Assembly (NCBI RefSeq): GCF_030384885.1
Contig: NZ_CP128613.1
Length of the DNA stretch: 64,000 bases
Strand: one strand, 5' to 3'
Source: Escherichia coli
Lineage (GTDB): Bacteria; Pseudomonadota; Gammaproteobacteria; Enterobacterales; Enterobacteriaceae
Shown here: in pieces, positions 6,900 through 29,990 of the stretch
How the letters are laid out: every line of letters begins with the position of its first letter
Numbering within the stretch: the stretch's first letter is position 1
Program-made: the position numbers and the translations under genes
Notes under the pieces: generated by a model
What the model was told of the DNA's origin: nothing
Databases searched by the model: none
What the model saw: the letters and a program-made list of their open reading frames with translations, nothing else

Positions 6900-8297
6900 A
6901 TGAAAATGGTCTCACGTATTACCGCGATCGGCCTGGCTGGCGTCGCGATTTGCTATTTAGGGTTATCTGGTTATGTGTGGTACCACGATAATAAACGCAG
7001 TAAACAGGCCGATGTTCAGGCATCTGCTGTCAGTGAAAATAATCAGGTTTTAGGTTTTCTTCGCGAAAAAGGATGCGACTATTGTCATACGCCTTCGGCA
7101 GAATTACCCGCCTATTATTATATTCCTGGCGCGAAACAGTTGATGGATTACGACATTAAGCTTGGATATAAATCTTTTAACCTCGAGGCCGTGCGTGCGG
7201 CTCTGTTGGCAGATAAACCCGTTTCGCAAAGCGATCTGAATAAGATTGAATGGGTGATGCAGTATGAAACTATGCCGCCAACGCGTTACACCGCGCTACA
7301 CTGGGCGGGTAAGGTGAGTGATGAAGAGCGGGCGGAAATACTTGCCTGGATTGCAAAACAGCGCGCGGAATATTACGCCAGTAATGATACTGCTCCGGAG
7401 CATCGCAATGAACCGGTGCAGCCTATTCCGCAAAAACTGCCTACCGATGCGCAAAAAGTGGCGTTGGGTTTTACGCTGTATCATGATCCCCGTTTATCGG
7501 CTGATAGCACCATTTCATGTGCACATTGCCATGCGTTAAATGCGGGTGGCGTTGATGGCAGAAAAACGTCGATTGGTGTTGGTGGTGCCGTTGGACCGAT
7601 TAACGCACCGACGGTCTTTAACTCAGTATTTAACGTTGAGCAGTTCTGGGATGGTCGTGCGGCAACATTGCAGGATCAGGCGGGGGGACCGCCGTTGAAC
7701 CCGATTGAAATGGCGTCGAAATCCTGGGACGAAATTATTGCTAAGCTGGAAAAAGATCCGCAGCTTAAAGCGCAGTTCCTCGAAGTCTATCCGCAAGGTT
7801 TCAGTGGCGAAAATATTACTGATGCTATTGCTGAATTTGAGAAAACATTAATTACGCCGGATTCCCCATTTGATAAATGGTTGCGTGGAGATGAGAATGC
7901 GCTGACGGTGCAACAGAAAAAAGGCTATCAATTATTTAAAGATAATAAATGTGCAACTTGTCATGGTGGTATTATTCTCGGCGGACGTTCTTTCGAGCCG
8001 TTGGGGCTGAAAAAAGACTTTAACTTTGGGGAAATTACGGCGGCGGATATTGGTCGTATGAATGTTACTAAAGAAGAGCGTGATAAATTGCGTCAGAAAG
8101 TACCCGGTTTACGTAACGTTGCTTTAACGGCACCGTACTTCCATCGCGGTGACGTGCCGACGCTGGACGGGGCGGTAAAACTGATGCTGCGCTATCAGGT
8201 AGGCAAAGAGCTGCCGCAGGAGGATGTGGATGATATCGTAGCTTTCCTGCACAGTCTGAACGGGGTATATACGCCGTATATGCAGGATAAACAATAA
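6900..8297 (+). CDS. yhjA: di-haem cytochrome c peroxidase
   Basis: 465-aa ORF with signal/TM start and CxxCH haem motifs (CAHCH, CATCH). Confidence 0.92.
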   Translation: MKMVSRITAIGLAGVAICYLGLSGYVWYHDNKRSKQADVQASAVSENNQVLGFLREKGCDYCHTPSAELPAYYYIPGAKQLMDYDIKLGYKSFNLEAVRAALLADKPVSQSDLNKIEWVMQYETMPPTRYTALHWAGKVSDEERAEILAWIAKQRAEYYASNDTAPEHRNEPVQPIPQKLPTDAQKVALGFTLYHDPRLSADSTISCAHCHALNAGGVDGRKTSIGVGGAVGPINAPTVFNSVFNVEQFWDGRAATLQDQAGGPPLNPIEMASKSWDEIIAKLEKDPQLKAQFLEVYPQGFSGENITDAIAEFEKTLITPDSPFDKWLRGDENALTVQQKKGYQLFKDNKCATCHGGIILGGRSFEPLGLKKDFNFGEITAADIGRMNVTKEERDKLRQKVPGLRNVALTAPYFHRGDVPTLDGAVKLMLRYQVGKELPQEDVDDIVAFLHSLNGVYTPYMQDKQ

Positions 8298-11101: not shown

Positions 11102-11112
11102 TTTTTACCCAG

Positions 11113-11220
11113 ACATAAAAAAAACCCGGCATAGGGGACCGGGAAGAGGATAGTCTGCCGTCTCCAGACTAATAAACCGTTATAACACTCCCTGTTGGCA
11201 CGGGAAACTTTGTGCTCTCA
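11113..11220 (-). ncRNA. gadY: small RNA GadY (antisense to gadX 3' end); coordinates approximate
   Basis: GC-rich dyad (CCCGG...CCGGG) followed by a U8 tract on the minus strand immediately downstream of gadX stop, in the gadX-gadW spacer. Confidence 0.5.
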
Positions 11221-11468
11221 GTAAGTTAAATATAACTTTTACTGGAGATAAGATCAGCCATTTTTTTATAAACATAAGCTATGCGCTGTGTGAAAATATA
11301 TTCTTCTTGCATTTTCTTATTATCAATTAACTGTTATGTCAAACTACTTTTTGGATAACTTTTGGTCCTACCAAATATGGCAGTTTATGCACGAAGAAGC
11401 GGTCTGGCATCATTTCATTAGTATACTGAAATTGAAATAATCGCAGTAATGAAATATAAGGGATAGTC

Positions 11469-27404: not shown

Positions 27405-27758
27405 TTAACTACAAATATTCTTACTGTCTGCGGAACAATTTTGTCTGACGAGGTTACGGACAATCACCTGAACCTTTTCCTGTTCGCATCGCCAGGCCTG
27501 CTCAATAATTTTCGCCGCCCATGCTGGAATATGCGGCGATAAGCGATAATGAACCCACTTACCCTGCTTGCGGTCCAGCAATAGCCCACTTTCACGCAGT
27601 AATGCCAGATGGCGGGAGATCTTGGGCTGCGACTGATCGAGGGCAGTGCAGAGATCGCAGACGCATAACTCTCCCAGTTCGCTGAGCAGTAAAACGATGC
27701 CCAGACGGGTTTCATCGGCAAGAATTTTGAACAATTGGATGGGTAACAGAAATGACAT
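27405..27758 (-). CDS. arsR: arsenic-responsive repressor
   Basis: 117-aa ORF with ELCVCDLC As(III)-binding motif in HTH. Confidence 0.95.
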   Translation of the reverse strand: MSFLLPIQLFKILADETRLGIVLLLSELGELCVCDLCTALDQSQPKISRHLALLRESGLLLDRKQGKWVHYRLSPHIPAWAAKIIEQAWRCEQEKVQVIVRNLVRQNCSADSKNICS

Positions 27759-27910
27759 ATTGCGCTCCTGATTGTTGCAGGTAGTGTCTCTCTTCGAAGC
27801 GGATAAGTCAAAAACATATATGTTTTAACGAATGTGTAAGTGCAGAGGAAGGTAATAGGTGTGAATTAAGCGTTGGGTGTTCATTTGAAAGGAAGTCTGA
27901 ATCAGGATGT

Positions 27911-27994
27911 AAAAAAACCGACTTTGCGTCGGTTTTTTACTCTTCAGCCAGAGTTGGTGGCTCTGGCTGGAGTGAGAATGCCCACATCTAACGG
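27911..27994 (-). ncRNA. agrB: antisense sRNA AgrB (antitoxin-type RNA for dinQ); ends approximate
   Basis: Repeat unit homologous to dinQ leader; minus-strand hairpin CCGACGCAAAGTCGG followed by U7 (plus 27911-27932). Confidence 0.55.
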
Positions 27995-28144
27995 TTCAAT
28001 ACTATTAGCCAGTGGCTAACATTGCAAGCGTTAGCGATTTCTTCAGCTGGCGAAGGGACAGTTTGCTATACATGGTGGTGAAAGAGGATTGATATACTTT
28101 CATCGGGTCGCTGCCGTACCAAGCCTTGTCCGAATCCGGACGTA

Positions 28145-28229
28145 AAAAAACCGACTTCGCGTCGGTTTTTTTACTCTTCAGCCCAGAATTGGTGGCTCTG
28201 GCTGGAGTGAGATAGCCATCATCTAACAC
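28145..28229 (-). ncRNA. agrA: antisense sRNA AgrA; ends approximate
   Basis: Second copy of the repeat with hairpin CCGACGCGAAGTCGG followed by U7 on the minus strand. Confidence 0.55.
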
Positions 28230-28289
28230 ATCAATGCTAATACCATACTGAAACTATTGCAAGGACGTGCTGGTTTTATAACCCGCAAG

Positions 28290-28309
28290 TACTGTATAAT
28301 TATCCAGTT
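28290..28309 (+). promoter_or_regulatory. LexA box overlapping extended -10 (TGTATAAT) of dinQ promoter
   Basis: TACTGTATAATTATCCAGTT: CTGT-N8-CCAG, one mismatch to the LexA consensus, overlapping a perfect TATAAT. Confidence 0.6.
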
Positions 28310-28500
28310 AGCTCTGAGGCATTTTCACTCTGGTAATGCGCATAAACGCTTTCAAAGTCCTGGTCAGAAGTACGGGTGGTGCCGTTAACTGATGCTCTGG
28401 CCGGAGTGAGATTGCCCACATCTAACAATGAGGCATGCGCCGTGACAGGCAGTGGATGAGTAAGCGGATGCATTCTCACTCCATCGCATGGAGAAAACGG

Positions 28501-28584
28501 GTGATTGATAAAGCAATCATCGTTCTTGGGGCGTTAATTGCGCTGATGGAACTGATCCGCTTCCTGCTTCAGCTTCTGAACTGA
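28501..28584 (+). CDS. dinQ: LexA-regulated membrane toxin peptide DinQ (27 aa, GTG start)
   Basis: GTG-initiated frame encoding VIDKAIIVLGALIALMELIRFLLQLLN; below the 60-aa cutoff of the ORF track. Confidence 0.75.
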   Translation: MIDKAIIVLGALIALMELIRFLLQLLN

Positions 28585-28601
28585 TAGCGGAAACGTAACT
28601 A

Positions 28602-28634
28602 AGGGCAAAGAGCACACCACTCTTTGCCCTTTAA
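28602..28634. terminator. stem-loop between convergent dinQ and gor (11-bp stem AGGGCAAAGAG/CTCTTTGCCCT)
   Basis: Perfect 11-bp inverted repeat with 7-nt loop immediately downstream of both stop codons. Confidence 0.5.
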
Positions 28635-28637
28635 CAT

Positions 28638-29990
28638 TTAACGCATGGTAACGAACTCTTCTGCCGCCGTTGGGTGAATGGCGACGGTATTGTCGAAGTC
28701 TTTTTTGGTTGCGCCCATCTTCAGCGCCACTGCGAAGCCCTGCAACATTTCATCCATACCAAAGCCAATGCCGTGAATACCGACAATCTTCTCTTCCGGT
28801 CCAACGCACACCAGTTTCATGCGGCACGGCTGGCGGTGCGTGGTGACGGCGGTATACATCGCGGTGAAAGAGGATTTATACACTTTCACCTGATCGTCGC
28901 CGTATTGCTCGCGCGCCTGCGGTTCCGTTAAACCAACAGTCCCAATCGGCGGATGGCTGAAGACCACGGTCGGAATATTGCTGTAATCCAGATGCTCATC
29001 CGGCTTGTTATTAAACAGGCGTTCAGAGAGGCGGCGGCCTGCTGCAACTGCCACCGGTGTCAGTTCCACTGCGCCCGTGTTATCGCCCACCGCGTAAATA
29101 CCTTCAACGCTGGTATTTTGATATTTATCGACGACGATATAGCCTTTTTCGTTGGTTTTTACGCCAGCGGCTTCGAGGTTAATGTTGTCATTGGCAGGCT
29201 CACGACCAATCGCCCAAATCAGGCAATCCACCGTTTCACTGCGACCATCTTCCAGCTCCAGCGTCAGGCTGCCATCAGCATTTTTCACGACCGCTTTCGG
29301 GATGGCGTTGGTGTGCAACTGCGGACCTTCGGCGTTCATCACTTCGACCAGCGTTTCAGAGATCATCGGGTCGAAGCTGCGCAGCGGCGCATGTTTACGA
29401 ACAAACAGATGCGTCTTTGCGCCGAGGCCGTTAATCACACCCGCCAGTTCAACGGCGATGTAACCCGCGCCAACAACCGCTACACGCTCTGGCAAAGCAG
29501 GAAGGGCGAAGAAGCCATCGGAATCAATACCGTATTCCACGCCCGGAATATCCGGGTGGCTCGGGCGACCGCCGGTGGCGATCAGGATATGATCGGCCGT
29601 GATGGTTTCGCCGTTTACTTCAATGGTTTTGGCATCAACGAAGCGGGCAAAGCCTTTGATTACATCAACGTTATTTTTACCGAGCACGTTTTCATAGGAG
29701 GTATGAATACGGTCGATATAGGCGGTACGGCTGGCGATCAACGTTTCCCAGTTGAACTTATTGATGGTGGTATCGAAACCATAATCCGGGCCGTACATGT
29801 GGATCGCTTCACGGATTTGCGCCGCGTGCCACATCACTTTTTTCGGCACGCAGCCAACATTCACGCAGGTGCCGCCCAGTTCTTTGGCTTCAATCAGCGC
29901 GCATTTCTGACCGTACATAGCCGCGCGGTTGATGGAGGCGATACCGCCGCTGCCGCCGCCGATGGCGATGTAATCATAGTGTTTAGTCAT
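28638..29990 (-). CDS. gor: glutathione reductase (NADPH)
   Basis: 450-aa ORF, FAD motif GGGSGG and redox-active CVNVGC. Confidence 0.95.

Follow-up and report, generated by a model that had tools for sequence, protein, structure and literature searches.

We asked what is encoded between arsR and gor in an Escherichia coli chromosome, a position at which an initial annotation had proposed a dinQ-agrA-agrB type I toxin-antitoxin locus. The stretch of DNA that was analyzed, hereafter the window, is 64,000 nucleotides long; in it, arsR (27405-27758, minus strand) and gor (28638-29990, minus strand) flank an intergenic region of 879 nt. Rfam, the NCBIfam DinQ model, RefSeq annotation and synteny with K-12 all bear out the proposed identity, and we conclude that E. 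coli dinQ-agrAB, a chromosomal type I toxin-antitoxin locus, almost certainly occupies this region in intact form. It is a known locus: published K-12 work, which used Northern blotting and primer extension as well as SHAPE, in vitro translation and RNase III assays, has documented its mechanism (PMC3567139, PMC5066626). Our own results concern the sequence elements, the families they belong to, their complementarity and how the +1 leader folds; the regulatory steps we infer from the K-12 experiments.

Based on gene calls and alignment to K-12, the position between arsR and gor is the canonical K-12 site. The K-12 MG1655 gor-dinQ-agrA-agrB-arsR interval aligned to the window with 96% column identity and conserved synteny, and all three annotated K-12 genes map within the locus: agrB projects to 27911-27991, agrA to 28144-28226 and the dinQ coding sequence to 28501-28584. 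The alignment also shows that the two sRNA copies had been named in the right order, AgrB and then AgrA. Positions 27760-28640 are 100% identical to the chromosome of E. coli 2013C-4282.

The locus had been recognized from a unit of roughly 60 bp that was said to occur three times. A repeat finder identified this direct repeat family on the plus strand at 27948-28007, 28183-28242 and 28382-28441, with the second and third copies sharing 83% and 60% identity with the first. When the 879-nt intergenic region was compared with itself using BLAST, the two sRNA units aligned over 119 nt at 85.7% identity (27895-28011 vs 28128-28245, E = 7e-32), the agrB unit aligned to the dinQ leader at 93.9% (27960-27992 vs 28394-28426, E = 3e-10) and the agrA unit aligned to the dinQ leader at 88.2% (28195-28228 vs 28394-28427, E = 2e-7). 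Thus, the count of three copies holds, whereas the length does not, as the unit common to all three is only ~33-34 nt. BLAST found no fourth copy in the 64-kb window. The triplicate repeat is real and far beyond chance.

Rfam identified two sRNA genes on the strand opposite dinQ, both belonging to family RF02891. The arsR-proximal gene, agrB, lies at 27909-27991 on the minus strand (90 bits, gathering score 40; full length, 1-84), and its dinQ-proximal paralogue, agrA, lies at 28142-28226 on the same strand (86.6 bits vs 40); each match spans the entire model, with its internal stem-loop and terminator hairpin. The agrB transcription start site (TSS) is at 27991; its RNA has a 5' antisense region of 32 nt and an internal stem-loop, and its Rho-independent terminator hairpin occupies 27909-27938. 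For its part, agrA has its TSS at 28226 and its terminator hairpin at 28142-28174. ViennaRNA folds have energies of -34.3 kcal/mol for AgrB and -30.0 kcal/mol for AgrA. These folds and the Rfam consensus structure confirm that each sRNA copy ends in a minus-strand hairpin followed by a U-run. In K-12, both sRNAs have been detected experimentally (PMC3567139).

A simple terminator scan picked up neither agr terminator because the A/U runs pair into the hairpin stem, and a simple promoter scan picked up neither the agr promoters nor the dinQ promoter because only 8 of 12 positions match. The agr terminators and promoters were therefore taken from the Rfam structure, the folds and direct reading. 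Read in this way, the putative agrB promoter (27999-28027, minus strand) consists of a -35 element TTGCAA at 28022-28027, a 17-nt spacer and a -10 element TAGTAT at 27999-28004. The putative agrA promoter (28234-28262, minus strand) has the same arrangement, with TTGCAA at 28257-28262, a 17-nt spacer and TAGCAT at 28234-28239. Each -10 element is located 7 nt from the TSS. The agrB reading agrees with the “consensus-like -10 and -35” elements described for K-12 (PMC3567139).

On the plus strand, a predicted LexA operator, TACTGTATAATTATCCAGTT, lies at 28290-28309 in the form CTGT-N8-CCAG and overlaps both the -10 element and the TSS of dinQ. It has four mismatches (16/20 identical) to the 20-nt consensus TACTGTATATATATACAGTA and is identical at 19 of 20 positions to the K-12 operator, for which a heterology index of 4.83 is reported (PMC3567139); the sole difference, G to A at 28298, is towards the consensus. 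The -10 element under this box, at 28295-28300, is a perfect TATAAT, compared with TATGAT in K-12. The initial annotation had placed a LexA-like box over an extended -10; the box and the overlap stand, whereas the extended -10 is not the canonical TGnTATAAT, because the TG at 28293-28294 directly abuts the hexamer, one base out of register. A second, weak LexA operator, with a heterology index of 13.82, has been reported for K-12. A tentative candidate for its counterpart in the window, TGCTGGTTTTATAACCCGCA at 28268, has eight mismatches to the consensus.

The primary dinQ transcript (~330 nt; 28307-28636, plus strand) begins at G28307, and the +44 processing site corresponds to U28350. Both positions were carried over from the K-12 numbering, which places the GUG start at +195 (PMC5066626), through an alignment without indels across the transcript region. 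Within the leader, element 1 of the published model (+16 to +28; PMC5066626) corresponds to 28322-28334. By the same numbering, and in line with complementarity and duplex energies, the AgrB/AgrA target (+88 to +119) is at 28394-28425; it is the third repeat copy and contains both element 2 (28400-28412) and an 8-nt block that varies among strains (28412-28419). Elements 3 and 4 (28473-28484 and 28488-28493), which form the Shine-Dalgarno (SD) hairpin, are identical in sequence to K-12, and the SD sequence GGAG at 28490-28493 is 7 nt before the GTG at 28501. In the minimum free energy (MFE) fold of the +1 RNA, nucleotides 94-105 are paired with 28-17 (elements 2:1) and the SD hairpin is closed (173-178 with 182-187); this predicted fold matches the published model. 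The MFE fold of the +44 RNA lacks the published 2:3 duplex for both the window strain and K-12. The complementarity between elements 2 and 3 is itself present as an inverted repeat (I5, 12/13), and the alternative 2:3 pairing can be traced in I3 as well as in I5.

The dinQ coding sequence (28501-28584, plus strand) has a GTG start and 27 codons, and its product, VIDKAIIVLGALIALMELIRFLLQLLN, is annotated as DinQ (WP_010362367.1) at this very position in the RefSeq record of the source genome. The peptide matched the NCBIfam equivalog NF041472 with 51.9 bits against a cutoff of 30. It is a single-pass hydrophobic peptide and a putative toxin, identical to K-12 DinQ at 26 of 27 residues; the difference is Leu16 to Met (A28546). 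The third repeat copy had been placed in the leader of a 27-codon, GTG-initiated reading frame for DinQ, and its position at +88 to +119, the NF041472 match and the RefSeq annotation all support that placement. Downstream, a hairpin terminator at 28601-28631, assigned to neither strand, is common to the convergent dinQ and gor; it was found as inverted repeat I6 and as a terminator-like site in the scan.

The initial annotation had staked its proposal in part on complementarity between the repeats and the dinQ leader in RNA-RNA folding, and this complementarity was evident: the 5' 40 nt of AgrB formed a duplex with the dinQ mRNA at -63.6 kcal/mol, compared with -27.5 ± 2.8 kcal/mol for shuffled AgrB 5' ends. 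Because folding duplexes between whole-length sRNA and mRNA over-extends them with large loops, we compared alleles using restricted segments, namely the 5' 36 nt of each sRNA against dinQ +80 to +125. Within the window, AgrB is complementary to dinQ +88 to +119 at 30 of 32 positions (-59.1 kcal/mol) and AgrA at 28 of 32 (-49.1 kcal/mol); within K-12, the corresponding values are 31/32 (-58.2 kcal/mol) for AgrB and 25/32 (-42.7 kcal/mol) for AgrA. Pairs formed across the two strains, with the sRNA from one and dinQ from the other, were mutually poor (25/32; -37.9 and -46.2 kcal/mol).

In K-12, LexA represses dinQ, and only the +44 form of the mRNA is translated, yielding a 27-aa inner-membrane peptide; an excess of DinQ depolarizes the membrane, reduces ATP levels, extends nucleoid compaction and diminishes conjugal recombination (PMC3567139, PMC5066626). 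When K-12 AgrB binds, the SD hairpin closes and translation is blocked, and a substrate for RNase III is created (PMC3567139, PMC5066626). By analogy, LexA would hold the dinQ promoter off in this strain until DNA damage lifts repression, and the primary +1 mRNA would be translationally inert, with element 1 paired to element 2 and the 3:4 SD hairpin closed. AgrB would be made constitutively from its own divergent promoter, and its first ~32 nt would pair with dinQ +88 to +119, re-closing the SD hairpin and creating a substrate for RNase III; this pairing would keep DinQ low. AgrA is a tandem paralogue of weaker complementarity. Nothing in the window contradicts these steps as transferred from K-12.

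Compared with K-12 dinQ-agrAB (Weel-Sneve et al. 2013, PMC3567139; Kristiansen et al. 2016, PMC5066626), the window locus has the same site, gene order and orientation, two AgrB-family sRNAs, a LexA box over the -10 element, identical elements 3 and 4 and SD sequence, a GTG-initiated 27-aa DinQ and a terminator common with gor. The two loci differ in the -10 element and residue 16 of DinQ (TATGAT and Leu16 in K-12; TATAAT and Met16 here), in the number of complementary positions (AgrB 31/32 and AgrA 25/32 there; 30/32 and 28/32 here), and in the 8-nt block, which is GAGTTCTT in K-12 and (A/T)TGCCCAC here, at agrB and in the dinQ leader alike. At agrB, the 8 nt that follow GGAGTGAGA are AATGCCCAC, as opposed to AGAGTTCTT in K-12; in the dinQ leader, the block is ATTGCCCAC, as opposed to AGAGTTCTT in K-12. 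The agrA block, ATAGCCATC, is the same in both strains. The AgrB/dinQ duplex of the window has one extra U.U mismatch at dinQ +106 (28412). In K-12, a primary RNase III cut was mapped at dinQ +106 (PMC5066626).

The close relative EC42405, the nearest to the source genome, has the same agrB/dinQ allele pair and also carries the U.U mismatch at 28412. Among 5,426 complete genomes, a 70-nt segment of the window's dinQ leader was matched with at least 99% identity in 11 and with 95-99% identity in 116; judged by sequence, this dinQ-leader allele is rare and matched to agrB. DinQ L16M (A28546) was found in no other of the 5,426 complete genomes: positions 28486-28600 are 100% identical only in the source genome, and EC42405 differs there solely at 28546. 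Both A28546 and A28298, the substitution that changes TATGAT to TATAAT, appear to be private to the source genome.

Structural variants of the locus also occur. UPEC132 and FCI29 lack the ~200 bp that separate the agrA and dinQ-leader copies of the repeat, whose starts are 199 bp apart, and a single hybrid repeat is left. The agrA and dinQ promoters are lost through this deletion, as are the LexA box and the leader's initial ~87 nt; the dinQ ORF is still annotated in both genomes. The dinQ leader 70-mer was present in 4,450 of 5,426 genomes and the dinQ ORF region in 5,422. Evenly spaced rows of the genome listing gave rough shares of ~70% for two agr copies, ~15% for one copy and ~15% for the promoter deletion.

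Two other systems offer comparisons. [quoted passage not shown] The sequences are unrelated, the tisB-istR-1 antitoxin is not duplicated, and the two sRNAs act differently, IstR-1 by blocking a ribosome standby site and AgrB by re-closing the SD hairpin (PMC5668327). The dql genes of Enterobacteriaceae (Kristiansen et al. 2016, PMC5066626) have a related 5' untranslated region with elements 1-4 and encode a related peptide; however, the window peptide is DinQ proper, with only 13.5 bits to the DqlB model (cutoff 35), and the window locus occupies the canonical arsR-gor site. A pattern scan of a genome collection found leader-type copies of the core motif in Serratia, Pantoea and one further Enterobacteriaceae genome and an sRNA-type copy with the same terminator in Citrobacter amalonaticus. 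Another ~20 matches in unrelated phyla were set aside as the chance level expected for 16 specified bases.

To describe the pairing block across genomes, we compared 16 distinct haplotypes, comprising E. coli spread over the similarity ranking together with E. albertii, E. whittamii and Escherichia sp. E1V33; this sample, from about 20 loci, is small and non-random. At least four classes of dinQ target block could be distinguished: GAGTTCTT, to which K-12 belongs; xTGCCCAC, the class of the window; ATGCCATT/ATACCATT; and TAGTCGTC. In every sampled genome, one sRNA copy fits the genome's own dinQ leader, apart from a near-fixed C.A at position 9 and differences that are mostly G.U. Within genomes, non-pairs sum to 17, compared with 39.2 ± 5.0 when the dinQ leaders are permuted among genomes (0 of 20,000 permutations as low), and 96.6% of the cells in the concatenated sRNA-dinQ alignment are paired. 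Eight of the 32 pairs have changed on both sides, giving 29 compensatory cells vs 9.8 ± 2.4 after shuffling (0 of 500). In two-copy genomes, the best-matching copy was taken as the cognate one, which biases these counts. Gene conversion between the paralogous repeats, without selection for pairing, could also yield this co-variation.

The copy that fits best is not the same throughout. K-12, this strain, GPEC1354, SC434, O139 and GPEC1337 favor the agrB-position copy; O157:H7 H2495, SCAID WND2, CFSAN061771 and E69 favor the agrA-position copy by both mismatches and duplex energy. For E. whittamii, the agrA-position copy is better when mismatches are counted, and the two copies tie in duplex energy (-56.4 vs -56.6 kcal/mol). 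Genomes with a single copy, E. albertii among them, have the proximal (agrA-position) copy alone.

Three other explanations of the locus were weighed against these results. One holds that the repeats are inert relics of duplication and that an ORF of 74 amino acids, or an antisense ORF of 59 amino acids, is the real gene. Both ORFs are open in this strain, and PGAP calls a 57-aa version of the 59-aa ORF (ORF59) as a “hypothetical protein” and a CDS resembling the 74-aa ORF in GPEC1354. The 74-aa ORF (28005-28229, minus strand) does exist in the window; however, it fully overlaps agrA, including the terminator hairpin, and a stop codon or frameshift interrupts its frame in 7 of the 11 loci compared (K-12, SC434, SCAID WND2, CFSAN061771, E69, E. 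albertii and E. whittamii). We therefore reject it as a protein, in agreement with the initial annotation, which had called it an artefact overlapping agrA. As an added detail, it also covers a fragment derived from gor. This decayed fragment (28029-28133, minus strand) lies between the agrB promoter and the agrA terminator, just 3' of the latter; the E. albertii locus, which has a single agr copy, carries it too. Its nucleotide core (28067-28118) aligns with gor at 28853-28904 over 52 nt at 82.7%, and the middle of the 74-aa ORF shares 12 of 21 residues with Gor 363-383 (BLASTP, E = 4e-7) and weakly matches TIGR01421 at positions 358-392. For ORF59, a profile search found no protein family match, and its most variable residues, which carry non-synonymous changes, coincide with the RNA-pairing block, so it is probably an annotation artefact as well. 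Taken with the experimental detection of the sRNAs in K-12 (PMC3567139), these observations leave the coding explanation barely credible.

Another explanation is decay: in this strain the locus would be a remnant, and the extra mismatch, L16M and the consensus -10 would reflect relaxed selection. The substitutions at 28298, 28412 and 28546 are compatible with decay, although the mismatch at 28412 is common to EC42405, and roughly 15% of complete E. coli genomes lack both promoters, so the system is dispensable. Nevertheless, the promoters, terminators, SD sequence, start codon and elements 1-4 are all intact, the Leu-to-Met change is conservative within a hydrophobic helix, and the nearest relative retains the same agrB/dinQ allele pair; we regard decay as very improbable. 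It is also possible, though unlikely, that the locus is as described and that AgrA and AgrB both act as antitoxins here. The rise in AgrA complementarity relative to K-12, to 28/32 and -49.1 kcal/mol, together with the fall in AgrB complementarity to 30/32, points in this direction, as does the better fit of the agrA-position copy in the four E. coli strains named above (and, by mismatches only, in E. whittamii). Against this, AgrA retains three mismatches within the 8-nt variable block and four across the 32 nt, the AgrB duplex is still better by 10 kcal/mol, and K-12 AgrA altered neither the SHAPE reactivity nor the translation of +44 dinQ (PMC5066626).

The intact dinQ-agrAB locus, with AgrB as the presumptive antitoxin in this strain, remains our preferred reading; the extra U.U mismatch at dinQ +106 and the L16M change in DinQ weigh against it. 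Whether the co-variation has a wider meaning is an evenly balanced question for us: the 8-nt block may be a polymorphic “lock and key” whose cognate antitoxin copy switches by lineage, with AgrA ancestral rather than generally degenerate. Gene conversion among the three repeats, combined with selection for pairing, would then create new specificities, and the same repeats would also mediate the deletions that silence the locus. In the literature examined, we found no published description of allele co-variation or of a switch in cognate copy; T1TAdb notes only that the more stable of two predicted antisense RNAs is picked.

For the locus itself, the analysis adds nothing new; it does show that a module of a short ORF and sRNAs hidden from the open-reading-frame track can be recognized from sequence alone. 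The co-varying alleles are a modest side lead of specialist interest. Natural alleles in which a trans-encoded antitoxin and its target are matched amount to ready-made compensatory-mutation evidence for pairing, and they suggest that the roles of AgrA and AgrB defined in K-12 may not be valid for all E. coli, including O157:H7.

We compared the repeat copy in the dinQ leader (28394-28425) with those in agrB (27960-27991) and agrA (28195-28226), and examined the corresponding copies in comparison loci from other genomes (L002-L014, L017, L022, L026, L038, L040, and L050). Within the antisense/target region, an 8-nt block (28412-28419 in the dinQ leader) has at least four allele classes among the sampled Escherichia loci, and at this block the dinQ leader co-varies with one of the sRNA copies in its own genome. 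The best match to the dinQ leader is the agrA-position copy in O157:H7 H2495, E69, SCAID WND2, and CFSAN061771; in E. whittamii, this copy is best by mismatch count only. In K-12, AgrA is regarded as a degenerate copy; however, the agrA-position best match in other lineages runs contrary to this view.

The RefSeq/PGAP annotation includes a 57-aa "hypothetical protein" (WP_001353597.1) on the minus strand at 28300-28473, antisense to the dinQ 5'UTR. Every sampled Escherichia locus keeps this frame open, but WP_001353597.1 has no family match and its variable residues fall on the RNA-pairing block; the annotation is probably an artefact.

In a comparison of 5,426 complete E. coli genomes, two substitutions in the window are apparently private to the source genome. 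The substitution at 28546 changes CTG to ATG and causes Leu16Met in DinQ, whereas that at 28298 changes TATGAT to TATAAT, which makes the dinQ -10 element a perfect consensus and also moves the LexA box one base nearer its own consensus. UPEC132 (L015, 960-1010) and FCI29 (L016, 1180-1220) lack ~200 bp between the agrA and dinQ-leader repeat copies (compare window 28195-28425); the deletion takes out both promoters and the LexA box, yet the dinQ ORF annotation persists. Among complete E. coli genomes, roughly 15% apparently have this deletion, and approximately a further 15% carry only a single agr copy.

Three matches to other known sRNAs in the window, all on the minus strand, exceed their Rfam gathering thresholds: GadY (11112-11225; 150 bits), ES205 (17004-17075; 105 bits), and ES036/CssrF (37005-37045; 42 bits).

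The core motif GGAGTGAGA-N8-ATCTAAC is also present beyond Escherichia (L034, L037, L046, and L047). The Citrobacter amalonaticus copy (L034, ~7857-7940, reverse complement) is of the sRNA type and shares the terminator, and a LexA-like box lies nearby; leader-type copies occur in Serratia sp. H1w (L037, ~520-710, reverse complement), where the motif lies upstream of a DinQ-like peptide, in Pantoea, and in another Enterobacteriaceae genome. These copies are presumably dql loci. Two short contigs, one of 424 nt in an Acinetobacter haemolyticus assembly (L019) and one of 1,061 nt in a Lachnospiraceae MAG (L023), contain the agr/dinQ sequence of E. coli with the allele ATGCCATT; contamination by E. 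coli DNA or mis-binning is the most likely cause.

The interval from the agrB promoter to the agrA terminator holds a decayed piece of gor coding sequence (28029-28133, minus strand; core 28067-28118), corresponding to Gor residues ~358-392. In E. albertii, the lone agr copy likewise has the gor fragment beside it; this arrangement suggests an old duplication that took in part of gor.
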